A DNA stretch of 64,000 nucleotides from Erysipelotrichaceae bacterium (GCA_017441765.1 JAFRVK010000030.1:21778-85777), one strand, 5' to 3'; shown: positions 5,241-17,317, counted from the stretch's first letter. The notes: a model not told the origin generated them from the letters alone. Numbers and translations: made by a program.

Positions 5241-5247
5241 AAAGAAA

Positions 5248-5476
5248 AGCTGGGAACAGAAGAGTAGCTTGATCAGATAGCGTAGAGAGTCTTTGGCTGG
5301 TGAAAAAAGACGTGGATGATCAAAGGAAGATGGTCTGGGAGCTGCTGGTCCGATATGAGGGTCAGACGCATGCCTGCGTTACAGGGCCAGGATATGTTTG
5401 TATCCGATGAGGTGCATCTGCACGAATTAAGGTGGTAACACGATGATAAGTCGTCCTTAGGGGCGGCTTTTTTGTT
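5248..5476 (+). promoter_or_regulatory. T-box leader (tRNA-sensing riboswitch), presumably Met-specific, controlling metQNI
   Basis: AGUA (5262-5265), AG box GUAGAGAG (5282-5289) and distal-loop GGCUGGUGAAA are present. T-box sequence AAUUAAGGUGGUAACACG lies at 5425-5442. It is followed by a terminator AAGUCGUCC-uuag-GGGCGGCUU-UUUUU (5448-5476). AUG triplets occur at 5330-5332 and 5355-5357. Confidence 0.8.
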
Positions 5477-5489
5477 TAAGGAGGTAATT

Positions 5490-5597
5490 ATGAATAAAAA
5501 AGTGAAAGAGGTGATCGGCTTGCGTCTTGGCGCAGGCGTGACGATGCCATGGTTTCTGTTTCAATACGTAACAATGATAGGAGGAATTAAACAATGA
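5490..5597 (+). CDS. Unannotated 35-aa small ORF between the T-box terminator and metQ (MNKKVKEVIGLRLGAGVTMPWFLFQYVTMIGGIKQ)
   Basis: AAGGAGG SD sits 5 nt upstream of ATG 5490. Its stop TGA (5595-5597) overlaps the metQ ATG (5594) as ATGA. It is below the track's length cut-off. Confidence 0.3.
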   Translation: MNKKVKEVIGLRLGAGVTMPWFLFQYVTMIGGIKQ

Positions 5598-6433
5598 AAA
5601 AAATCGTTACATTACTGTTTGTATTGCTGCTGCTCTGCGCTTGCGGAAATAAAGATTCCGGATCAGGAGACGCTCCTGCGGAAGATAAGACGATCACGGT
5701 CGGCGTAAACCCGGTCCCTCATGCCGAGATCCTGGAGAACGCGGTGAAGCCTGTCCTGGAAGAAGCAGGATGGAAACTGGAAGTCGTAGTCTATCAGGAT
5801 TATGTCCTGCCGAATGAAAACCTGGTGGCAGGTGAACTGGATGCGAACTATTTCCAGACCTTAGGTTACATGAACGGCCAGAATGATTCCCATGGCTGGA
5901 CTTTGACGGCCGTCAAGGGCGTTCATATCGAGCCGATGGGGCTGTATTCCGACAAATATGCCTCTGCAGCCGATATTCCTGACGGAGCCTATATTTCTGT
6001 ACCGAATGATGAAGACAACCGTACCAGGGCACTGGAATTTCTGATTGCGAACGGTTTCCTGAACCCGGTCGAAGGAGAACTTTCAGGCGATACGCTGAAT
6101 GGAAATGCCGAAGCCAATCCTCATGGCTACCTGATCGTTGAACTGGAAGCCGCTCAGCTGCCTCTGGCATTGGCCGACGTGGATGCCTCGGTCATCAACG
6201 GGAACTATGCGTTAGGCGCAGGCCTTCCTGCGACCTATCCGGCCCTGCTGGTCGAAAGCTTCGATGCGGAAACGACGATCCGCCGTACCAACTTCATCGT
6301 CGTTCTGGAAGGAAACGAGAATTCAGAGAAGATCCAGGCGCTTGTCGATGCGATTACTTCGGATGCGGTGCAGAAGTATATCGAGGATACCTATAAAGGT
6401 GCGGTCATTACTTCTTTTGTCGATCCGCAATAA
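5594..6433 (+). CDS. metQ: Methionine ABC transporter substrate-binding lipoprotein (NlpA/MetQ family)
   Basis: Lipobox LLLCAC-G. NlpA-family sequence (ITVGVNPVPHAEILE...YFQTLGYM). Sits in an operon with metN and metI downstream of a T-box. Confidence 0.9.
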   Translation: MKKIVTLLFVLLLLCACGNKDSGSGDAPAEDKTITVGVNPVPHAEILENAVKPVLEEAGWKLEVVVYQDYVLPNENLVAGELDANYFQTLGYMNGQNDSHGWTLTAVKGVHIEPMGLYSDKYASAADIPDGAYISVPNDEDNRTRALEFLIANGFLNPVEGELSGDTLNGNAEANPHGYLIVELEAAQLPLALADVDASVINGNYALGAGLPATYPALLVESFDAETTIRRTNFIVVLEGNENSEKIQALVDAITSDAVQKYIEDTYKGAVITSFVDPQ

Positions 6434-6500: not shown

Positions 6501-7469
6501 ATGATAAAACTGGAAAACGTATGTAAGGATTTCGGAGATCTCAGGGTTCTCAAAGACATTACGCTGGAGATCGCAGATCACGAAATCTACGGGATCATCG
6601 GACAGAGCGGTGCAGGAAAATCGACGCTTTTAAGATGCATCAACGGCCTGGAAGAGTATCAGTCCGGCCATATCTGTATCGATGACGTGGAAGTGTCGAC
6701 AAAGGATCAGAAAAAGCTGCATCTTCTGCAGAAGAAGATGGGAATGATCTTTCAGAATTTCAATCTTCTGGAACGGCTGGATGTCTATGACAACGTTGCG
6801 CTTCCGATGAAATTCTGGGGCATCAATCCCCGTACGCCCGAGGCACAGAAAAAGATCAGGGAACTGATCTCGCTGGTCGGGCTGGAAGACAAGATGCACG
6901 TACGCCCGAAAGAACTGTCCGGGGGACAGAAGCAGAGAGTGGCGATCGCCAGAGCGCTGGTCCTTGATCCGGAGATCCTTTTGTGTGATGAGGCGACTTC
7001 TGCTTTGGATCCTGCCATTACAAGAGAGATCCTGAGTCTGCTTCAGCAAATCAACAGGGATCTGGGCATCACCATCATCGTGGTGACCCATCAGATGGAA
7101 GTCGTGAAACAGATCTGCGAAAAAGTCGCTTTCATCAAGGAGGGACGCGTCCTGGCCATAGGCAAACCGGAAGAATTGTTCATCCGTCCGAGCAAAGACA
7201 TCAAAGCCTTTCTGCATGAAGACAGCGAACTTCTGCCGGACAACGGATTGAATATCCAGCTCTTCTTTACGGATGAAAGCTCGGACGAGCCCGTCATCTC
7301 CCAGATGGCCAGAAAGCTGGATATCGACTTTTCTATTTCCTGGGCAAAACTGGAAGATTTCCGTTCCAATGTCTACGGTTCGCTGGTGATAACGATCAAT
7401 GAAGAAGATAAGACCAAGGTCCTGAATTATCTGGATTCGGTCAACGTCTTATGGGAGGTCCTGGACTGA
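6501..7469 (+). CDS. metN: Methionine ABC transporter ATP-binding protein with C-terminal NIL domain
   Basis: Walker A GQSGAGKST, signature LSGGQKQRVAIARAL, Walker B ILLCDEATSALD, and a NIL-like C-terminus. Confidence 0.9.
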   Translation: MIKLENVCKDFGDLRVLKDITLEIADHEIYGIIGQSGAGKSTLLRCINGLEEYQSGHICIDDVEVSTKDQKKLHLLQKKMGMIFQNFNLLERLDVYDNVALPMKFWGINPRTPEAQKKIRELISLVGLEDKMHVRPKELSGGQKQRVAIARALVLDPEILLCDEATSALDPAITREILSLLQQINRDLGITIIVVTHQMEVVKQICEKVAFIKEGRVLAIGKPEELFIRPSKDIKAFLHEDSELLPDNGLNIQLFFTDESSDEPVISQMARKLDIDFSISWAKLEDFRSNVYGSLVITINEEDKTKVLNYLDSVNVLWEVLD

Positions 7470-7470
7470 T

Positions 7471-8106
7471 ATGATGAGCATTATTCTGAACGCAAGCCGG
7501 CAGACCCTGTACATGGTCTTCTGGTCGACATTGTTCTCTGTCGTTCTCGGTTTTATTCCTGCCGTCATACTGACGCTGACAGCACCGGACGGGCTTCGTC
7601 CGAACAGGATCGTCTATGAGACACTGTCTTTGCTGGTGAATATCTTCCGTTCATTCCCGTTTATCATTCTTCTGGTGATCATCATTCCGTTCACCCGGCT
7701 TGTGGCAGGCAAAGCGATCGGAACCAGGGCAGCCATCGTACCGTTGACGGTTTCTGCGATCCCGTATATCGCCAGGATCTTTGAGACGAGTCTCAGGGAG
7801 ACCGATCCCGGAGTCATCGAAGCGGCACGTTCTTTCGGTGCTTCCGATCTGCAGATCCTGTTCCGTGTCTATATCAAAGAATCGATCCCGAGGATGCTGA
7901 ACGGGGTGATCCTGCTGATCATCTCGCTGGTCGGTTATTCGGCAATGGCCGGGACCGTAGGCGGAGGAGGGATCGGCGATCTGGCGATCCGTTACGGCTA
8001 TCAGCAGTACAAGACGGAGTATCTTCTGGTCTGTTCCATCATCCTGATCATCTTTGTGCAGCTGATACAGATGCTGGGGAACTACCTGTACAAGAGGCTG
8101 TCCTGA
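7471..8106 (+). CDS. metI: Methionine ABC transporter permease
   Basis: Starts 1 nt after the metN stop. Multi-TM protein with an EAA-like loop (IEAARSFGASDLQILFRVYIKES). Confidence 0.9.
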   Translation: MMSIILNASRQTLYMVFWSTLFSVVLGFIPAVILTLTAPDGLRPNRIVYETLSLLVNIFRSFPFIILLVIIIPFTRLVAGKAIGTRAAIVPLTVSAIPYIARIFETSLRETDPGVIEAARSFGASDLQILFRVYIKESIPRMLNGVILLIISLVGYSAMAGTVGGGGIGDLAIRYGYQQYKTEYLLVCSIILIIFVQLIQMLGNYLYKRLS

Positions 8107-8107
8107 G

Positions 8108-8902
8108 ATGCGCACGGAAACGATATTCATACCCTCTAAAAGAGGAACGCTGATTCCTGCCGATATTGCGGCTGCTGAAAGCAAAGGAGGACTATTGATC
8201 CTGGCACACGGCTTCAAGGCGGAACGCAAGGAAGACGAGAGATTTACCGCGGTTGCTGAACAGATGGCAGAACAGGGATTCCACGCGATATCCATGGACT
8301 TTCCCGGCTGCGGTGAATCAGAAGAACCTTTTATCGCCTACAGTCTGGATCACTGTCTGGATGATCTAGAAAGCTGTTTCCTGTACATGAAGGAACATTA
8401 TGAGACCGATGAGCGTCTCTATCTTCTCGGTTACAGCATGGGCGGAAGGCTGATCTCGCTGTTTCTAAGAAAACATCCGGAAGCAAAGAAACTGGTCTTC
8501 TGGGCTGCGTGCAACCGTTCCTTCGATCTGGATGATCTGTTTCTGGAACAGTCTTTCCGGATACTCAAGGAACAGTGCGACAGAGAAGGTTCCTGCGATT
8601 TCTATGATATCTATACGCAAGAGACTGACCGGATGTCCTCGGCGTTTGTAAACAACATGCTGGAATACGATGCCTTAAGTCCTTTGGAGCATTTCAAAGG
8701 CGATGCCTTGATCATTCAGGGCGATCAGGACAGGACCATCGAAGTCGAGAATGCGCAATGGATCTATGATCATCTGAAAGAGGCTTCTTATAAAGAACTG
8801 CACTGCATTCAAGGTGCCGATCATGGCTTCGGCTTATGGGACGGACGTACACAGGACAGCGAGGAACTGGTTCGGACGACCGTTTCCTTCCTGAATCGCT
8901 GA
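8108..8902 (+). CDS. Alpha/beta-fold hydrolase
   Basis: HG oxyanion region (LILAHGF) and nucleophile elbow GYSMGG. ATG lies 1 nt after the metI stop, so it is probably co-transcribed. Confidence 0.7.
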   Translation: MRTETIFIPSKRGTLIPADIAAAESKGGLLILAHGFKAERKEDERFTAVAEQMAEQGFHAISMDFPGCGESEEPFIAYSLDHCLDDLESCFLYMKEHYETDERLYLLGYSMGGRLISLFLRKHPEAKKLVFWAACNRSFDLDDLFLEQSFRILKEQCDREGSCDFYDIYTQETDRMSSAFVNNMLEYDALSPLEHFKGDALIIQGDQDRTIEVENAQWIYDHLKEASYKELHCIQGADHGFGLWDGRTQDSEELVRTTVSFLNR

Positions 8903-8930: not shown

Positions 8931-8959
8931 TTGAAACTGCAGATCAATGATGTTAAGAT
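8931..8959 (+). promoter_or_regulatory. Candidate promoter for the SAM riboswitch (TTGAAA-17-TAAGAT)
   Basis: -35 at 8931-8936, 17-nt spacer, -10 at 8954-8959. Confidence 0.5.
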
Positions 8960-8961
8960 TA

Positions 8962-9085
8962 TTAAGTCCATAAAGAGAGATGGAGAGACAAGCTCTGTGA
9001 TATCTCAGCAACCTCACTGTAAGGTGCTAAAGCTTGAACGATGGGTAAAAAAGACATTTGCCCATCCTGTGATGGGCTTTCTTTA
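8962..9085 (+). promoter_or_regulatory. SAM-I (S-box) riboswitch with terminator expression platform
   Basis: AAAGAGAGAUGGAGAGACAAGCUCUGUGAUAUCUCAGCAACC...AAGGUGCUAAAGCUUGAA matches the S-box core. Terminator is GCCCAUC-cugu-GAUGGGC-UUUCUUU (9060-9084). An alternative pairing of GAUGGG (9040-9045) with GCCCAUC gives an antiterminator. Confidence 0.8.
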
Positions 9086-9107
9086 TGATAATAGGGGGAG
9101 AAATAGT

Positions 9108-9653
9108 ATGAAAAATGATTCTGTCAAGAAAGTTGTCGCCACCGGTATCGGTGCTGCATTGTTCTTTGTGCTGGCCCGTTTCGTAGCGATTCCTAGCGGC
9201 ATTCCGAACACGAACATCACGTTCCAGTATGCGATCCAGGCAGTATTTGCTGTACTGTACGGACCGGTCGTAGGATGCCTGTCAGGTTTCATCGGCCACG
9301 TGCTCTGTGACATGAGTTGGGGCGGCGTCTGGTGGAGCTGGGCGTTTGCGACAGCTGTCTATGGTCTGGTCGTCGGTCTGTTTGCGAAAAAGATCAATGT
9401 CAAAGACGGCTACTTCGCCAAGAAAGAGATTTCTACTTTCGTTTTGGCAAACCTCTTGGCTAACGCTGTGGCATGGCTGCTGATCGCTCCGGTCGGCGAT
9501 ATCGTCATCTACAAAGAAGATGCCAAACTGGTCTTCACGCAGGGCCTGGTTGCCGGCTTAGGCGACTTCCTGTTCGCTGTCGTTCTGGGCGGCCTGCTGC
9601 TGTTTGGCTACTCCAAGACAGTTGCCAAGACAGGTTCGCTGGACAAAGAGTAA
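9108..9653 (+). CDS. ECF transporter substrate-specific (S) component, UPF0397-like
   Basis: GGGGGAG SD precedes ATG 9108. A ~181-aa polytopic membrane protein (MKNDSVKKVVATGIGAALFFV...). From memory it resembles the UPF0397 S-component family. The track ORF from 8931 would read through the riboswitch. Confidence 0.7.
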   Translation: MKNDSVKKVVATGIGAALFFVLARFVAIPSGIPNTNITFQYAIQAVFAVLYGPVVGCLSGFIGHVLCDMSWGGVWWSWAFATAVYGLVVGLFAKKINVKDGYFAKKEISTFVLANLLANAVAWLLIAPVGDIVIYKEDAKLVFTQGLVAGLGDFLFAVVLGGLLLFGYSKTVAKTGSLDKE

Positions 9654-9677
9654 AACAGTCATTTCGAATCGAAAGAA

Positions 9678-9708
9678 AAAGAAGTATCACGGATACTTCT
9701 TTTTTTCT
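9678..9708 (+). terminator. Intrinsic terminator after the S-component gene
   Basis: AGAAGTATC-acg-GATACTTCT followed by TTTTTTT. Confidence 0.75.
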
Positions 9709-9852
9709 TGGCTCAAACATCAGGGAGATTGAAATGAAAAAACTTTTACGGTTTCATCTTAACAGATGATTGTGAAACAATGGTGATAATTCATGGGGCG
9801 CTCAAAAGGAATCGCAGGCATGCGTATGCAACATATTGTATAATAGTAGGGT

Positions 9853-11565
9853 ATGAAACCGATTATTTCTTTTAAAGATTTTTCTTTTCAGTACAATGCC
9901 CAGAAACAGCCGACTCTGAAGCACATCGATCTGGACATCTATCCCGGAGAGAAGATCCTGATCTGCGGAGCGAGCGGTTCCGGCAAGAGCACGCTGGGCA
10001 ACTGCATCAATGGCCTGATCCCTTTTTCCTATGAAGGGAAGATGGAAGGCGAACTGACAGTGGACGGGATCACGACAAAGGATTCTTCCATTTTTGAACT
10101 GTCGACCAGAGTAGGCACGGTCCTGCAGGATCCGGATGGGCAGTTTGTCGGACTGACGGTCGCAGAAGATATCGCTTTCGCTTTGGAGAACGACTGCGTC
10201 GAGCAGGACGCGATGAAGCGTCAGATCATGGAAGCGGCCGGAAAAGTCGGCATCGAAGACCATATGAGCAAAGCTCCGTATGACCTTTCCGGCGGACAGA
10301 AACAGCGGGTCTCCATGGCAGGCGTCATCGTTGACGATGTCAAGATACTGCTGTTTGACGAACCGCTGGCCAATCTTGACCCTTATACAGGCAAGACCGC
10401 AATCGAACTGATCGATCTGATCAAGAAACAGACCGATACCACAGTCCTTATCATCGAGCATCGTATCGAGGATGTCCTGTGGGAGAAAGTCGATCGCATC
10501 ATTCTGATGGACGACGGAAGGATCGTTTCCGATACGAAACCGGAAGAACTGCTGCGCAGCGATCTGCTGAGCAGATACGGGATCAGGGAACCCCTGTATC
10601 TGACCCAGCTCAAATATGCCGGAGTCGATGTGAACAAGGTCGAGGGCATCGATAATATCAAAGATCTTGTTCTGAAAGAAAACGACAAGAAAAAGATACG
10701 CAACTGGTATGAAGCCCAAAGCAAACCTGAGCGCATCAATGATAACGATTATATCCTTGAAGTCGAACATGTGGATTTTGCCTACGACAACAGCGAACAG
10801 ATCCTTTTCGATGTTTCCTTCAAGGTGAGACAGGGGGAGATGCTGGCGATCGTCGGCAAGAACGGCGCAGGCAAATCGACCATGTGCAAGGTCATCTGCG
10901 GTTTCGAAAAGAACAGGACCGGCAGGATCCTCTTTAAAGGCGAAGATATCACCCAGTCCAGCATCCGTGCCCGCGCTTCCCATATCGGCTATGTCATGCA
11001 GAACCCGAACCAGATGATCTCCCAGGCGATGATCTTCGACGAAGTGGCCATGGGTATCCGCAATCTGGGACTGAGTGAAGAGGAGCTGCAGGAGCGGGTC
11101 TATAATACATTGAAGATCTGCGGTCTGTATGAATTCCGCAACTGGCCGATATCCGCCCTGAGTTTCGGACAGAAGAAACGTGTCACCATCGCATCCATCC
11201 TGGTCATGGGACCGGAAGTGGTGATGCTGGATGAACCGACGGCAGGACAGGATCTCAGGCACTACACCGAGATCATGGAGTTCCTGAAAGAACTGAATGA
11301 AAAAGGCATCACGATCATCCTGATCACGCACGACATGCATCTGATGCTGGAATATACCGATCGCTCCATCGTCTTTACCGATGGCCGTATCGTTGCGGAC
11401 AAGTCAGGATCTGCTGTCCTTTGCGACAGGGAACTGATACAGAAAGCCGCTTTGAAGGAAACATCGCTTTTCTACATCGCGGAAATGGTAGGGATCATTG
11501 ATCCTGTAGACTTTGTCGATTGTTTCATCGACTGTGACAGAAAGGAGCGGGACCGTGGCAACTAA
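9853..11565 (+). CDS. ECF transporter fused double ATPase (EcfA1-EcfA2 type)
   Basis: Two ABC cassettes. First: GASGSGKST / LSGGQKQRVSMAGV / LLFDEPLANLD. Second: GKNGAGKST / LSFGQKKRVTIASI / VMLDEPTAGQD. Confidence 0.9.
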   Translation: MKPIISFKDFSFQYNAQKQPTLKHIDLDIYPGEKILICGASGSGKSTLGNCINGLIPFSYEGKMEGELTVDGITTKDSSIFELSTRVGTVLQDPDGQFVGLTVAEDIAFALENDCVEQDAMKRQIMEAAGKVGIEDHMSKAPYDLSGGQKQRVSMAGVIVDDVKILLFDEPLANLDPYTGKTAIELIDLIKKQTDTTVLIIEHRIEDVLWEKVDRIILMDDGRIVSDTKPEELLRSDLLSRYGIREPLYLTQLKYAGVDVNKVEGIDNIKDLVLKENDKKKIRNWYEAQSKPERINDNDYILEVEHVDFAYDNSEQILFDVSFKVRQGEMLAIVGKNGAGKSTMCKVICGFEKNRTGRILFKGEDITQSSIRARASHIGYVMQNPNQMISQAMIFDEVAMGIRNLGLSEEELQERVYNTLKICGLYEFRNWPISALSFGQKKRVTIASILVMGPEVVMLDEPTAGQDLRHYTEIMEFLKELNEKGITIILITHDMHLMLEYTDRSIVFTDGRIVADKSGSAVLCDRELIQKAALKETSLFYIAEMVGIIDPVDFVDCFIDCDRKERDRGN

Positions 11566-12388
11566 AGTACTGAACTATATCCCGAAAGAAAGCTTTATCC
11601 ATGGGCTTTCCGGAACCACGAAACTGATCATCTTCCTGACTTTTTCCGTTCTTTGCGGTCTTTCTTTCGATACGAGAGTCTTGCTGTTCCTGCTGTTATT
11701 GTCGTTTATCGGTTTCTCTTTGAGCAATATCAGACTTTCCGAGATCCGGCTGATGAGCACCTTTCTGATCATCTTCTTGGTGATGAATTTCATATTGCTG
11801 TTCCTGTTCAATCCGGAATACGGTCCTGAACTGTACGGTTCAAGAACGGTGCTGTTCCATCTGTTTGGCAGATACGATGTGACCATGGAACAGATGTTCT
11901 ATCAGTTCAATGTCTCCCTGAAATATGTCATCGGCTTCCCGATCGCGATCCTGTTCATTTCCACGACGAATCCGAGTGAATTTGCTTCTTCACTGTCACA
12001 GATCGGCGTGCCTTACAGGATCAGCTATTCCGTGTCTCTGGCGTTGAGATACATCCCGGATATTCAGCAGGATTACCATGAGATCGCACAGTCCCAGGAA
12101 GCCAGAGGCGTCGCCTTAGGCAAAGATGTCAAGTTCTTTGAACGGCTGAAGAATTCTGCCAAGATCCTGCTTCCGCTGGTTCTCACCAGCCTGAACCGTA
12201 TCGATGACATTTCCAATTCGATGCAGCTGAGAAGTTTCGGCAAGCACAAGAAGAGGACCTGGTTCACCAAGAAAAAAATGACAGCTGCGGATTACAGCGT
12301 CATTGCGTTCTGTATCATATTGTTTGTGGTGGGTATGATCATCACCAATCAAGGCGGGAATAACCTTTATAATCCTTTTGTGAGGTAA
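11555..12388 (+). CDS. ECF transporter transmembrane (T) component
   Basis: GTG 11555 lies 7 nt after AAAGGAG and overlaps the ATPase stop. Multi-TM protein with the EcfT-type Ala-Arg-Gly region (QSQEARGVALG). Confidence 0.8.
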   Translation: MATKVLNYIPKESFIHGLSGTTKLIIFLTFSVLCGLSFDTRVLLFLLLLSFIGFSLSNIRLSEIRLMSTFLIIFLVMNFILLFLFNPEYGPELYGSRTVLFHLFGRYDVTMEQMFYQFNVSLKYVIGFPIAILFISTTNPSEFASSLSQIGVPYRISYSVSLALRYIPDIQQDYHEIAQSQEARGVALGKDVKFFERLKNSAKILLPLVLTSLNRIDDISNSMQLRSFGKHKKRTWFTKKKMTAADYSVIAFCIILFVVGMIITNQGGNNLYNPFVR

Positions 12389-12390
12389 CG

Positions 12391-13233
12391 ATGAAAAAGA
12401 TGCTTGTTGTTCAGACAGATTTTACTTATAAAGAAGGCGCAGTAGCGGCCATGTACGGCGTGATCAAGAGTGTCGATCCGGATATCGAGATCATCACGGC
12501 GACACATGAGATCCCGCAGTATGATACCTGGTCTGCTTCCTATCGCCTGTATCAGTATATCGATTTCTGGCCGAAAGGAACGATCTTCATTTCCGTGGTC
12601 GATCCCGGTGTAGGAACGGACCGCAGAGCCTGTGTCGCAAAGACAAGAAACGGCTACTATATCGTCACTCCTGACAATGGCTCATTGACCCATGTGGACC
12701 GTTATTTCGGGATCAAAGAAGTACGGCAGATCGATGAGACGGTCAACCGCCTGCATCGCGAGGATAACGGGGCCGTGTCGATCTTCCATGGCAGGGATCT
12801 TTTCGGTTACTGCGCTGCCAGACTTGCTTCCGGAATCATTTCCTATGAAGAAGTCGGACCGGTCTATGACGTTTCTGAGATCGTCCGGCACGACATCAGG
12901 GAAGCAGAGATCTTTGAAGACAGGATCGAAGGCATGTTCGAGATCAACGATCCGAATTTCGGCAATCTCTGGACCAATATCCTCTTAAGCGATTTCCTTA
13001 GGAAACACAAGATGGGTGACAAGATCCATACCGTGATCTATCACAATGAAGAGAAAGTGTTTGATGATGATCTTCCATACTACGATTCCTTCGGCAAAGC
13101 TCCGAAACACAGCGTCATGATCTATAACAACGAGATCAACAAGATGGGTCTGGCGGAAGTGATGGGCAATCTCTGCGAAGATTATCAGTTAGGCTATGGC
13201 GACGCATACAAGGCGGTGTTCTATGATGAATAA
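12391..13233 (+). CDS. S-adenosyl-L-methionine hydrolase (adenosine-forming), DUF62 family, paralog 1
   Basis: VVQTDFTYKEG, VVDPGVGTDRRA and FHGRDLF motifs typical of the DUF62 / SAM hydroxide adenosyltransferase family. Confidence 0.85.
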   Translation: MKKMLVVQTDFTYKEGAVAAMYGVIKSVDPDIEIITATHEIPQYDTWSASYRLYQYIDFWPKGTIFISVVDPGVGTDRRACVAKTRNGYYIVTPDNGSLTHVDRYFGIKEVRQIDETVNRLHREDNGAVSIFHGRDLFGYCAARLASGIISYEEVGPVYDVSEIVRHDIREAEIFEDRIEGMFEINDPNFGNLWTNILLSDFLRKHKMGDKIHTVIYHNEEKVFDDDLPYYDSFGKAPKHSVMIYNNEINKMGLAEVMGNLCEDYQLGYGDAYKAVFYDE

Positions 13234-14062
13234 ACTATTGGTATTTCAGACGGACTTCGGTCTGGATGACGGTTCGATCAGCGCGATGGAAGGAGTCGCC
13301 TTCAGTGTCGACTTCGATCTGAATATCCGTCATCTGACGCACAATATTCCCCAGTACAATATTTTTGATGCTTCCTATCGTCTGTATCAGGCCATCAATT
13401 ACTGGCCTTCAGGGACCGTTTTTGTGTCTGTCGTCGACCCTGGCGTGGGTTCTGACCGCAAAGCGGTCGTAGCAAAAACAAAGAACGATTATTATATCGT
13501 CACACCGGACAACGGAACACTGACACACATCGACCGTTTCCTGGGAATCGAAGAGCTCAGAGAAATCGATGAAAAAAGAAACCGTCTGGCAGGATCCGAA
13601 CTGTCCTATACGTTCCACGGCAGAGACGTCTTTGCCTATACGGGAGCCAGACTTGCTTCCGGGAAGATCTCATTTGAAGAAGTCGGACCTCAGGTCGATC
13701 TTGACGATATGGTCCGTCTGGAACTTTATGGCTGCCATCCGATCGAAAACGGCGTCATGGGACAGATCGATATCCTGGATGTCCGTTTCGGTTCTCTGTG
13801 GACCTCGATCTCCTATGATGATTTCATCAACTGCGGTTTCAGGATCGGCGACGACATCCTGGTGGAGATCTTCCACAACGACCGCAAAGTCTATTCCAAC
13901 CGGATCAACTACGGGAAATCCTTCGCGGATGTCGCCATCAGCGAACCGCTGATCTATATGAATTCTGCCTATCATATGGCAGTCGCGATCAACCAGGGAT
14001 CTTTCTCCAAAGCCTACGGCATCGGTGTAGGTTCCAAATGGAAGATCACCATGACCAGATGA
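13223..14062 (+). CDS. S-adenosyl-L-methionine hydrolase (adenosine-forming), DUF62 family, paralog 2
   Basis: VFQTDFGLDDG, VVDPGVGSDRKA and FHGRDVF. The start ATGATG overlaps the paralog-1 stop. The track start at 13196 adds a non-homologous extension. Confidence 0.85.
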   Translation: MMNKLLVFQTDFGLDDGSISAMEGVAFSVDFDLNIRHLTHNIPQYNIFDASYRLYQAINYWPSGTVFVSVVDPGVGSDRKAVVAKTKNDYYIVTPDNGTLTHIDRFLGIEELREIDEKRNRLAGSELSYTFHGRDVFAYTGARLASGKISFEEVGPQVDLDDMVRLELYGCHPIENGVMGQIDILDVRFGSLWTSISYDDFINCGFRIGDDILVEIFHNDRKVYSNRINYGKSFADVAISEPLIYMNSAYHMAVAINQGSFSKAYGIGVGSKWKITMTR

Positions 14063-15546: not shown

Positions 15547-16029
15547 CTATTTTTTAAACAGCACGATTTTTGGAGCCAGTATCACACCGATACAAAGCGC
15601 TATGCCATCCGCAAGGAATGCCACAAGATTGCTGGTGAACTTGGCATAGAACGGCCAGTGATACATCCAGATCTCCAGTGCTGTTTTTATCACAGCGATG
15701 CCGATAAAGACCGCGATCAGACTGATCAATACTTTCAGAAACAGATTTTTCGTACGAGGCAGGAGATAGCCAAGAGACAGTCCGATGAAAGCCTGTCCGA
15801 TGGCCCAGGCGATTGGAAGCGAACCGCCTTTGAGCAGATTGGAAATGATGCAGCCTGCCACACCGACAATGGTTGCGGAAGGGCCCAGACCTTCAAGCAG
15901 GACTCCGAATACGATGTATCCGAGATCCAGCTTGATCCTGCTGATCAAAGGAATGATCACGACAGTCGACAGGACCACATACAAGGCGATCCCAATGCCA
16001 AGTAATGCTGTTTTACGTTGACGATTCAT
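15547..16029 (-). CDS. Small polytopic membrane protein, ECF S-component-like
   Basis: A 160-aa product with 5-6 TM from MNRQRKTALLGIGIALYVV. TATAAT sits 6 nt upstream of this ATG. The longer track ORF (to 16119) overlaps the divergent gene. Confidence 0.5.
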   Translation of the reverse strand: MNRQRKTALLGIGIALYVVLSTVVIIPLISRIKLDLGYIVFGVLLEGLGPSATIVGVAGCIISNLLKGGSLPIAWAIGQAFIGLSLGYLLPRTKNLFLKVLISLIAVFIGIAVIKTALEIWMYHWPFYAKFTSNLVAFLADGIALCIGVILAPKIVLFKK

Positions 16030-16063
16030 AACATCATTATACGATAGAAACAAAGAGGTGAAC

Positions 16064-17317
16064 ATGAACGAAATTAAATGTCCCAAATGCGGAGCAGTCT
16101 TCCAGATCGATGAAGCCAATTACGCTTCGATCGTGAAACAGGTCCGGGATCATGAATTCTACGACGAGCTTCATCAGAGAGAAAACGAGATGAAGGACCA
16201 GCTGAATTCCGCTGTCGAACTGACCAGGGCAAAAACGATCAATGACAATAAAGAAAAGGTTGCTGAACTGGAACAGACCATCATCTCCCTGCAGGCAAAA
16301 ATAGACAGTCAGGAAACCGAAGCCAGACTGTCGACAAAGGAAGCTCTGGACAAGGTGCAGAACGAACTGGCAAAGAAAGATCTGCAGATCAGGGAGCTGC
16401 AGTCGCAGCTTTCCGGAAAGGATACGGAATCCAGACTGCTGGTCAGCGAGGCAGTTTCGAAAAAGGATCAGGAGATCATGGAACTGAAGACCCGTTCCGA
16501 GGCCATGAAGGACAGCTATGAGACGAAACTGCAGGGAAAGGATCAGGAGATCGCCTTCTACAAGGATCTGAAAGCCCGTCATTCGACCAAGATGATCGGT
16601 GAAGACCTGGAACAGCACTGTTTCTATGAGTTCAACCGGGTCAGACCGTTATTCAGAAATGCCTACTTCGAGAAAGACAACGATGCTTCCCAGGGAAGTA
16701 AAGGCGATTTCATTTTCCGTGATTATGACGACGACGGAACGGAATTCATCTCGATCATGTTCGAAATGAAGAACGAACGCGATGAGACCGCGACCAAGCA
16801 CAAGAATGAAGATTTCCTGGATAAACTCGATAAAGACAGGAAAACCAAGAACTGCGAGTATGCGGTACTGGTATCTCTGCTGGAAATGGACAATGATCTC
16901 TACAATGAAGGCATCGTCGATATGTCTCACAGATACCCCAAGATGTATGTCGTACGTCCGCAGAATTTCATTCCGATCATCACGCTGTTGCGCAATGCCG
17001 CAATGAATTCCCTGTCTTACAAGAAACAGCTGATCGTCGCTCAGAATCAGGATATGGATTTCAAGAATTTTGAGCAGAACATGAATGATTTCAAAGACGC
17101 GTTCTCCCGCAATTACGAGCTGGCCTCCCGCAAGTTCCAGGATGCGATCGACGATATCGACAAGACGATCAAAGCCCTGGAAAAGACCAAGGCGGATCTC
17201 TTGTCATCCGATCGGAATCTGCGTCTGGCCAACGACAAAGCCCAGGATCTTACGGTCAGGAAGCTGACGAAAAACGCACCAAGCATTGCTGCGAAAATCA
17301 GTCAGGAGAACGACTGA
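16064..17317 (+). CDS. DUF2130-family protein: N-terminal zinc ribbon, long coiled coil, C-terminal PD-(D/E)xK-like nuclease fold
   Basis: AAAGAGG SD sits 5 nt before ATG 16064. CPKCG zinc-ribbon motif and a Q/E/K-rich coiled coil. GDFIFRDY...ISIMFEMKNE resembles the D...ExK nuclease motif. Confidence 0.75.
   Translation: MNEIKCPKCGAVFQIDEANYASIVKQVRDHEFYDELHQRENEMKDQLNSAVELTRAKTINDNKEKVAELEQTIISLQAKIDSQETEARLSTKEALDKVQNELAKKDLQIRELQSQLSGKDTESRLLVSEAVSKKDQEIMELKTRSEAMKDSYETKLQGKDQEIAFYKDLKARHSTKMIGEDLEQHCFYEFNRVRPLFRNAYFEKDNDASQGSKGDFIFRDYDDDGTEFISIMFEMKNERDETATKHKNEDFLDKLDKDRKTKNCEYAVLVSLLEMDNDLYNEGIVDMSHRYPKMYVVRPQNFIPIITLLRNAAMNSLSYKKQLIVAQNQDMDFKNFEQNMNDFKDAFSRNYELASRKFQDAIDDIDKTIKALEKTKADLLSSDRNLRLANDKAQDLTVRKLTKNAPSIAAKISQEND

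Follow-up and report, generated by a model that had tools for sequence, protein, structure and literature searches.

A SAM-I riboswitch, an ECF transporter and tandem DUF62 hydrolases in a probable SAM uptake-and-salvage locus of Erysipelotrichaceae

We describe here a locus in a 64,000-nucleotide stretch of DNA from an Erysipelotrichaceae bacterium (GCA_017441765.1 JAFRVK010000030.1:21778-85777; the whole stretch is called the window below, and positions without another label refer to it). At 8931-14062, a SAM-I (S-box) riboswitch, which senses S-adenosylmethionine (SAM), is followed by genes for the substrate-capture component (S), the fused double ATPase (A) and the transmembrane component EcfT (T) of an energy-coupling factor (ECF) transporter, and then by two genes of the DUF62 family, DUF62-A (D1) and DUF62-B (D2). 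The locus is probably an undescribed route of SAM uptake and salvage: on balance, we favour the view that the module pairs a SAM importer with hydrolases that convert SAM to methionine, and that it serves uptake and salvage in a methionine-auxotrophic rumen bacterium. The cargo would be SAM itself, probably both sulfonium epimers, as suggested by the regulation, synteny and phyletic pattern of the module, and the activity of D1 and D2 is presumed from the known activity of their family. An original prediction made from this DNA had proposed the import of SAM or a related compound coupled to the release of methionine. Every feature that it had placed in the segment is present, within a few bases at most of where it had been put, and the proposal now draws support from synteny, from control by SAM-I and methionine (Met) T-box elements, and from carriers of the module that lack metK. 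This pattern of metK loss is the strongest new observation of the study.

Results

The module in genomes without metK

The source genome (G000) is a 1.5-Mb metagenome-assembled genome (MAG), 77% complete, with the window on its contig C63, and its nearest relatives are rumen and gut Erysipelotrichaceae. We surveyed 121 genomes sampled across this family. The S component scores above cut-off in 34 of them and PF01887, the DUF62 family, is found in 35; both are present in 33, so that all S-bearing genomes save one also have DUF62, and in 29 genomes the two share a contig, no more than about 8 kb apart. DUF62 is thus syntenic with the ECF genes well beyond the window, as the original prediction would have it, and its genes nearly always form a tandem pair.

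A match to PF02773 (metK) was not found in 13 of the 121 genomes. The module is present in nine of these 13, versus 25 of the 108 metK-bearing genomes (odds ratio 7.5, Fisher p = 0.0013, uncorrected for kinship), and among metK-less genomes of at least 95% completeness it occurs in six out of six (G087, G015, G035, G040, G067 and G111, from five genera). Losses of metK appear to have been repeated, since genera g1, g15 and g4 each contain some species that keep the gene and others in which it is missing. In the five of these six genomes that were searched again, with full-length MetK as query and with the family of archaeal type (G087, G015, G035, G040 and G067), nothing turned up save for an 18-bit remnant in G035. 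This remnant lies at G035:C29:18655-19127 on the - strand of a genome that is 99% complete, where a SAM riboswitch is followed by a 265-aa open reading frame (ORF) whose match is to the first, N-terminal third of MetK, possibly a metK gene in decay.

One of these genomes, G087, belongs to the same genus as the source. Its S is 29% identical to that of the window, and its SAM-I element, confirmed by Rfam, is followed by a gap-free operon (locus L105) of S, A, T, an M20 dipeptidase, D1 and D2, so that the riboswitch is predicted from this arrangement to control the DUF62 genes as well. Without MetK, import is the sole means by which a cell can raise its SAM level. G087 is in this position, and the one SAM riboswitch that it has controls the ECF operon. 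The dipeptidase (L105 8231-9577), between T and D1, is of the PepV/Sapep type and scores above the cut-off of TIGR01887.

In other genomes metK itself lies close to the module: in G027 it precedes S on the same strand at a distance of about 100 nt, and in G001 and G084 it lies, behind a riboswitch, a few kb downstream of the cluster. The gene flanking metK in the source genome is not conserved even in G004, and synteny offers no usable test of a clean metK deletion in G087. The MetK proteins of the source genus and of genus g32 (G000:C44:29124-29495; G004, G032 and G108) are unusually divergent and short (about 124 bits versus about 210 in the rest of the family; 340-350 aa).

Domains of MetE and of the homocysteine S-methyltransferases (MetH, MmuM, YitJ) were not found in the five genomes searched for them, namely G000, G087 (99% complete), G004 (99%), G001 (98%) and G125. 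In view of this lack of methionine synthase domains, the organisms look like methionine auxotrophs that would gain nothing from homocysteine-type or S-methylmethionine-type precursors.

Synteny of DUF62 with the ECF genes in two classes

A scan of genome contigs with an alignment of S yielded 80 loci, of which 62 belong to Clostridia and the other 18 to Erysipelotrichaceae. The order S-A-T is preserved in 69 of the 80, and all-against-all clustering of the neighbouring ORFs gave DUF62 as the sole recurrent neighbour of S-A-T; in Clostridia, the order DUF62-S-A-T is seen at about 26 of the 62 loci. In the literature searched, we found no publication linking DUF62 with ECF transporters. The E. 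coli DUF62 homologue is a solitary gene and uninformative.

The association extends to mobile DNA. On the Enterococcus faecium conjugative plasmid NZ_CP064407 (L109), an IS1216-flanked DUF62-S-A-T cassette stands behind a T-box (110.5 bits) with the specifier AUG, and a second Met T-box drives an amino-acid permease and mmuM. The two cassettes adjoin at 76-86 kb of the plasmid, between IS1216 copies. With both Met T-box cassettes lying between insertion sequences on a conjugative plasmid, methionine/SAM salvage appears to be mobile cargo. In Listeria monocytogenes, too, a T-box (107 bits) whose specifier reads AUG (Met) stands before DUF62, here a lone gene. Together with the SAM-I instances, these T-boxes indicate that separate lineages have placed this set of genes under two unrelated RNA sensors, one for uncharged tRNA-Met and one for SAM.

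The SAM-I riboswitch of the window and its relatives

Rfam scans at gathering threshold covered 12 stretches, the window and 11 related loci. The SAM-I model (RF00162) matches 8965-9047 on the + strand with 55.8 bits against a gathering threshold of 44.4 (E 3.4e-10), beating its clan competitors SAM-IV and SAM-I/IV and bearing out the S-box core first noticed at about 8971-9038. For wider searches, an S-box core regular expression that proved too lax (many false matches) was replaced by a custom covariance model, under which the window aptamer scores 76.5 bits; with only 7 base pairs, this model amounts largely to a sequence profile built from Erysipelotrichaceae. The aptamer contains P1, P2 and P3 together with the CAAG/CUUG partner of the loop-to-J3/4 pseudoknot. 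The four-way P1-P4 junction is not complete, as 17 P4 model positions are deleted and P4 is almost gone, and the consensus fold of nine orthologous leaders comprises P1-P3 only. Short SAM-I aptamers (83-91 nt) with P4 almost or entirely deleted are common in Erysipelotrichaceae, and in L009 the J3/4 pseudoknot partner is missing as well. The source genome has two SAM riboswitches only, the second of which, also short, sits before metK (G000:C44:30204-30288).

A promoter-like site found by consensus scan at 8931-8959 (+ strand; TTGAAA, 17 nt, TAAGAT, with TG) ends 6 nt upstream of the aptamer, and related leaders show corresponding TTGAA..GATAAGAT boxes. On the other side of the aptamer, a terminator scan placed an intrinsic terminator at 9060-9086 (+), consisting of the 7-bp GC-rich stem GCCCATC-CTGT-GATGGGC (9060-9077) and a TTTCTTTAT tail. 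The terminator is mutually exclusive with an antiterminator helix at 9040-9066 (+), in which 9057-9066 is the partner of 9040-9049, a segment made up of the 3' strand of P1 and AAA.... Such a pair had been predicted, with the terminator exactly as found here and an antiterminator that turns out to be longer than was claimed. The antiterminator corresponds to the minimum-free-energy fold (-38.7 kcal/mol), 4 kcal/mol below the fold in which the terminator is enforced (-34.7 kcal/mol), and among nine related leaders compensatory changes keep the terminator pairing at three of six stem pairs. As judged from these predicted folds, the design of the platform is that of a classical S-box OFF switch acting by transcription termination.

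By the custom covariance model, SAM-I immediately precedes S in the window, in L008, L009, L010, L013, L016, L017 and L018, and in G087. Rfam detected no SAM-I in seven other related loci, and the custom model found none at the 62 Clostridia loci, an absence that carries less weight than the Rfam result because that model is largely a sequence profile from Erysipelotrichaceae. In the survey of 121 genomes, SAM-I stands beside S in G000 and G087 only.

The S component

The S gene (9108-9653, + strand) is preceded by the strong Shine-Dalgarno sequence AGGGGGAG and encodes 181 aa with about 6 hydrophobic segments in the hydropathy profile. Four Trp and three acidic residues are conserved across its family. 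As an ECF S component of the UPF0397/PRK13661 family, it scores 212.7 bits with NF010182 (cut-off 99) and 155.9 bits with PF07155; the S components of G087 and of the E. faecium plasmid score 133 and 232 bits with NF010182, respectively. Pfam and NCBIfam label this family 'ECF-type riboflavin transporter S component'. The name is unsupported, because B. subtilis, which possesses a RibU, has no NF010182 match, because no flavin mononucleotide (FMN) riboswitch was detected in the 12 stretches scanned with Rfam, and because regulation is by methionine and SAM signals; a RibU-type identity of S was rejected on these grounds. No related S component could be detected in the PDB at E <= 1 by sequence or E <= 10 by profile. 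The suggestion that the locus offers a substrate clue for an orphan S family has survived, with the riboflavin label unsupported, no PDB relative and regulation pointing to SAM and methionine.

A second, distant S-like gene lies on the opposite strand 1.5 kb downstream of the DUF62 pair (15547-16119, -; PF07155 31.9 bits, NF010182 38.7 bits, below the cut-off), after an SPFH/Band-7 gene and a gene for a membrane protein of 168 aa that matches no family.

The ATPase, EcfT and the spacer behind S

The fused EcfA-EcfA' double ATPase (9853-11565, +; 570 aa) has two PF00005 domains with DUF3744 (PF12558) between them, and exceeds the cut-offs of both TIGR04520 (417 bits versus 315) and TIGR04521 (366 bits versus 330). 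EcfT (11555-12388, +; 277 aa; PF02361 93.6 bits) carries the ALRY and QLRS coupling motifs. Its GTG start overlaps the ATPase stop, as originally noticed, has an AAAGGAG Shine-Dalgarno sequence and agrees with tblastn alignments in relatives. S, A/A' and T are thus encoded together, all above cut-off, as expected of a dedicated (group I) ECF transporter, and the Pfam and NCBIfam matches confirm the assignments first made from the sequence alone.

The S and ATPase genes are 199 nt apart. Directly 3' of S, a 15-bp hairpin (9676-9704; RNAfold) followed by a U-run occupies 9676-9712 (+) and may act as a terminator or attenuator; it was called as a bidirectional terminator. A comparable hairpin follows S at each of 20 loci inspected, among them Clostridia loci in which A has a normal Shine-Dalgarno sequence. 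Next comes a conserved 5' region of the ATPase gene (9713-9852, +) with a mini-ORF, a TTGTGAA box and TATAAT. The mini-ORF, MKKLLRFHLNR (9734-9769), carries a GGAG Shine-Dalgarno sequence. The TATAAT (9839-9844) lies 8 nt ahead of the ATPase ATG, and the invariant TTGTATAAT ends 6-8 nt before this start codon, which is without a usable Shine-Dalgarno sequence of its own. Compared with L007, L009 and L107, the spacer shows 71% mean column identity. The homologous region of ~150 nt (L007 6745-6893, L009 10620-10777, L107 3290-3464) has a mini-ORF beginning MKKL... of 8-11 codons in these loci.

In G125 the same 5' region heads A-T-D1-D2 at a locus without S (L107), and the S of this genome is found elsewhere, beside metQNI. 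Because of this arrangement, A-T-D1-D2 is probably a separate transcription unit in the clade of the window. The conserved region might serve as the promoter of a leaderless A-T-D1-D2 transcript, or it might itself be a leader of a kind not yet recognised. On this layout, the riboswitch of the window is predicted to gate S alone directly, and the hairpin behind S may equally be an attenuator setting the ratio of S to the rest of the module. The original linkage of the riboswitch to S, ATPase/T and DUF62 holds in that all are present in this order; the direct reach of the riboswitch is predicted to end with S, at the terminator and the 199-nt spacer.

The DUF62 pair

D1 (12391-13233, +; PF01887 155 bits, PF20257 a weak 40.8 bits) and D2 (13223-14062, +; PF01887 166 bits, PF20257 67 bits) are encoded in tandem, their genes overlapping in ATGATGAATAA as predicted, and the proteins are 48% identical. 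VVDPGVG(T/S)DR and FHGRD occur in both. The DPGVG(T/S)xR and FHGRD motifs, which hold what we take from work on PH0463 to be the Asp/Arg/His triad, align with PH0463 and 2zbu and are conserved in 36 of the 36 sequences compared. The best PDB matches of D2 are 2zbu, PH0463, MJ1651 and 22uy, the last of which is named an (R)-SAM hydrolase.

In a tree of the 36 sequences, the D1 proteins stand apart as a clade with 100/100 support and carry lineage-specific substitutions, and D2 clusters with the single-copy DUF62 that accompanies the ECF module in Clostridia, Enterococcus and Listeria. The D1 changes fall in the C-terminal domain, where all D1 orthologues have NS -> NE, AINQGSF -> AEV(V/M)GNL and SFADV -> SFGKA; in the window, the motif reads AINQGSF -> AEVMGNL, with NS -> NE. 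We read D1 as a diverged SAM-hydrolase paralogue and D2 as the orthologue of the single-copy ECF-linked DUF62. The separate clade and altered C-terminal residues of D1 rule out the equivalence of the two copies, and of the original suggestion that both are catalytically competent, the part concerning the triad stands for both proteins, with D1 supported for its N-terminal triad only. The DUF62 enzymes StDUF62 and its archaeal counterparts prefer the methylation-inactive (R,S)-SAM epimer (PMC12120602; bioRxiv 10.1101/2025.08.29.672840).

The upstream Met T-box operon

A Met-specific T-box leader (5243-5461, +; RF00230 109.3 bits versus a gathering threshold of 93) and the SAM-I riboswitch are the two RNA elements that reach the gathering threshold in the window. 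The specifier region GAAGAUGG of the T-box gives the codon AUG. Downstream of it are, all on the + strand, metQ (5594-6433; NlpA lipoprotein), metN (6501-7469; ABC_tran and NIL), metI (7471-8106; BPD_transp_1) and an alpha/beta hydrolase gene (8108-8902; Hydrolase_4/Abhydrolase_1), all assigned by Pfam. These metQNI/hydrolase neighbours recur in 8-12 related loci. The T-box-controlled metQNI that had been seen upstream is hence confirmed, and with it the idea that two signals of methionine status meet at one locus. The hydrolase gene, which begins 2 nt after the metI stop, encodes an S33-aminopeptidase-like protein with a faint similarity to homoserine-lactone lactonases, and is kept in 11 related loci.

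Discussion

A model for SAM uptake and salvage

We propose that, when SAM is bound to the riboswitch of the window, P1 would form and the terminator at 9060-9077 would halt transcription, and that, when SAM is low, 9040-9049 would pair with 9057-9066 and the S gene would be transcribed. S, the fused EcfAA' and EcfT would together make up a dedicated importer, with A-T-D1-D2 as a neighbouring unit having its own conserved 5' region. Since S alone would be directly gated, the riboswitch would set transport capacity through the supply of S. Imported environmental SAM would be a mixture of epimers, of which (S,S)-SAM could be used directly. The translationally coupled DUF62 pair, possibly as a mixed trimer, would hydrolyse imported SAM to L-methionine and adenosine with a preference for the (R,S) epimer, and the products would feed translation and purine salvage. 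A more far-reaching version of this model, to which we give nearly but not quite even credence, holds that the UPF0397-type ECF transporter is the first ECF-class, ATP-driven bacterial SAM importer, that it let free-living Erysipelotrichaceae of gut and rumen lose metK repeatedly, in at least five genera, that DUF62 converts imported SAM, chiefly the (R,S) form, to methionine and adenosine, and that D1 extends the substrate range or forms a mixed trimer.

Several observations weigh against the uptake-and-salvage model. Most carriers of the module keep metK, the absence of metK rests on MAGs, and four metK-less genomes, 68-94% complete, are without the module. L007, L011, L012, L014 and L015, whose S proteins are 86-92% identical to that of the window, have a plain promoter and a short leader, so that SAM-I on S appears to be a trait of one rumen subclade. 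The strong terminator and the 199-nt spacer part S from A-T-D1-D2, a set that exists at the S-less locus of G125, and co-regulation of S with A-T-D1-D2 in the window is putative. No DUF62 was found anywhere in Gemmiger formicilis, in a complete Faecalibacterium prausnitzii genome or in one Blautia genome, all of which have S-A-T; with many S-A-T carriers lacking it, DUF62 would seem dispensable for use of the cargo. D1 and D2 reach 98-141 bits with the NCBIfam (R)-SAM hydrolase equivalogs NF058624 and NF053629, versus cut-offs of 350 and 470. To break down SAM while its level is low seems uneconomical, except where the reaction is limited to the (R,S) epimer or serves methionine supply, and SAM hydrolysis has been doubted as a physiological role of DUF62 (PMC12120602).

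Alternative explanations

Rather doubtful, in our estimate, is the idea that the importer carries some other methionine-related compound (a 'methionine precursor', S-methylmethionine (SMM), methylthioadenosine (MTA), S-adenosylhomocysteine (SAH), S-ribosylhomocysteine, decarboxylated SAM or a SAM conjugate), with DUF62 acting on that compound or on endogenous SAM. It would be in keeping with mtsABC/MtsTUV, which are ECF systems of methionine regulons with a predicted 'methionine precursor' cargo (PMC3228920, PMC4239095, PMC3654945). Ordinary methionine transporters, too, are found under SAM riboswitches and Met T-boxes, the altered C-terminal ligand-side motif of D1 suggests a second substrate, and the PepV-like M20 dipeptidase within the G087 operon hints at an amide-linked cargo or at a parallel release of methionine from dipeptides. 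However, precursors of the homocysteine or SMM type could not be used without methionine synthases and homocysteine methyltransferases, and a methionine-type cargo cannot restore SAM in metK-less genomes, yet the only SAM riboswitch of G087 sits on the operon. DUF62 chemistry, moreover, requires a 5'-sulfonium leaving group, which excludes MTA, SAH and methionine.

The wiring of the window invites another explanation, namely that riboswitch-S and A-T-D1-D2 are functionally separate there, that S docks on a housekeeping EcfAA'T and that their adjacency is a historical leftover. The terminator after S and the conserved 5' region of A would fit such a split, as would the solitary S of L011-L015, the location of A-T-D1-D2 away from S in G125, and G124, which has a solitary S, the general EcfT only and no DUF62; a general EcfT is present in every genome checked. 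We nevertheless consider it unlikely, given that S, A and T are adjacent at 69 of the 80 loci, as they are in 29 genomes of the family. The same post-S hairpin is also seen at L019-L024 and in Clostridia, where A lacks a promoter box and has a normal Shine-Dalgarno sequence, which makes the hairpin compatible with an attenuated single operon, and functional separation would alter the wiring while leaving the inferred cargo untouched. Least probable of all is that the transporter imports a vitamin such as riboflavin and that the DUF62 proteins are housekeeping (R,S)-SAM repair enzymes, neighbours by chance. Besides the failure of NF010182 to match in B. subtilis despite its RibU and the lack of an FMN riboswitch at the 12 scanned stretches, this account is opposed by the SAM-I and Met T-box elements that regulate the module, by a synteny conserved across two classes with different gene orders, and by the Met T-box on DUF62 even where it stands alone, as in Listeria. 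What speaks for it is the family name in Pfam and NCBIfam and the framing of DUF62 proteins as metabolite-damage repair enzymes (bioRxiv 10.1101/2025.08.29.672840).

Relation to known systems

A close parallel on the transport side is MtsTUV/mtsABC (TCDB 3.A.1.29), a predicted methionine-regulated ECF system (PMC3654945, PMC3228920, PMC4239095). Compared by description only, both it and the module described here are dedicated S/ATPase/T systems placed in methionine regulons by comparative genomics, here through SAM-I and Met T-box elements, and the cargo of both is predicted. The system of the window differs in having SAM-I on S alone, and a DUF62 partner, SAM as cargo and metK loss were not found in the literature on MtsTUV. 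The UPF0397/COG4720 S components are candidate members of HtsTUV, which resembles the window system, again by description only, in its small S, fused double ATPase and T. HtsTUV (TCDB 3.A.1.31, 'Unknown-ABC1') is a dedicated ECF family without a known cargo (PMC3654945); the window locus offers both a proposed substrate and a regulatory link, neither of which HtsTUV has.

Among characterised DUF62 enzymes, PH0463, MJ1651, StDUF62 and SaciSAMH share PF01887, PF20257 and the Asp/Arg/His motifs with D1 and D2 (PMC12120602, bioRxiv 10.1101/2025.08.29.672840). D1 and D2 differ from them in being coupled in translation, in that one of the two has diverged, and in their link with an importer and with sensors of methionine and SAM; they also score far below the equivalog cut-offs. 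Their context points to nutrient salvage and not solely to the repair of endogenous damaged SAM.

SAM import in association with metK loss or decay has a precedent in obligate intracellular bacteria such as Rickettsia and Chlamydia, which take up SAM via drug/metabolite-transporter (DMT) carriers. Those are secondary carriers of intracellular organisms, whereas the system proposed here would be ECF-type, ATP-driven, accompanied by a SAM-cleaving enzyme and at work in free-living gut and rumen anaerobes. MmuP/MmuM offers a similar logic, in that a sulfonium derivative of methionine is imported and then converted to methionine, and in E. faecium mmuM, with a Met T-box of its own, is a neighbour of the DUF62-ECF cassette. 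It differs in transporter family, enzyme and substrate, and MmuM needs homocysteine; PF02574, the MmuM family, was not found in the Erysipelotrichaceae genomes searched (G000, G087, G004, G001 and G125). What is new here is the probable cargo of an ECF importer, together with the coupling of that importer to an enzyme that would cleave the cargo.

Significance

The locus gives an orphan transporter family a testable cargo, and this family is present in thousands of Bacillota, including Enterococcus plasmids, relatives of Listeria and major gut genera. It also bears on a question left open in the recent DUF62 literature, namely why a cell would hydrolyse an expensive cofactor, and if our reading is true, the DUF62 family would gain a physiological job. 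The findings suggest that SAM may be a traded metabolite in gut and rumen communities, with uptake sufficient for some free-living bacteria to lose metK, a gene that is, to our knowledge, otherwise near-universal. This would have implications for auxotrophy networks, for the cultivation of such organisms, and for the reach of SAM riboswitches beyond biosynthesis genes.

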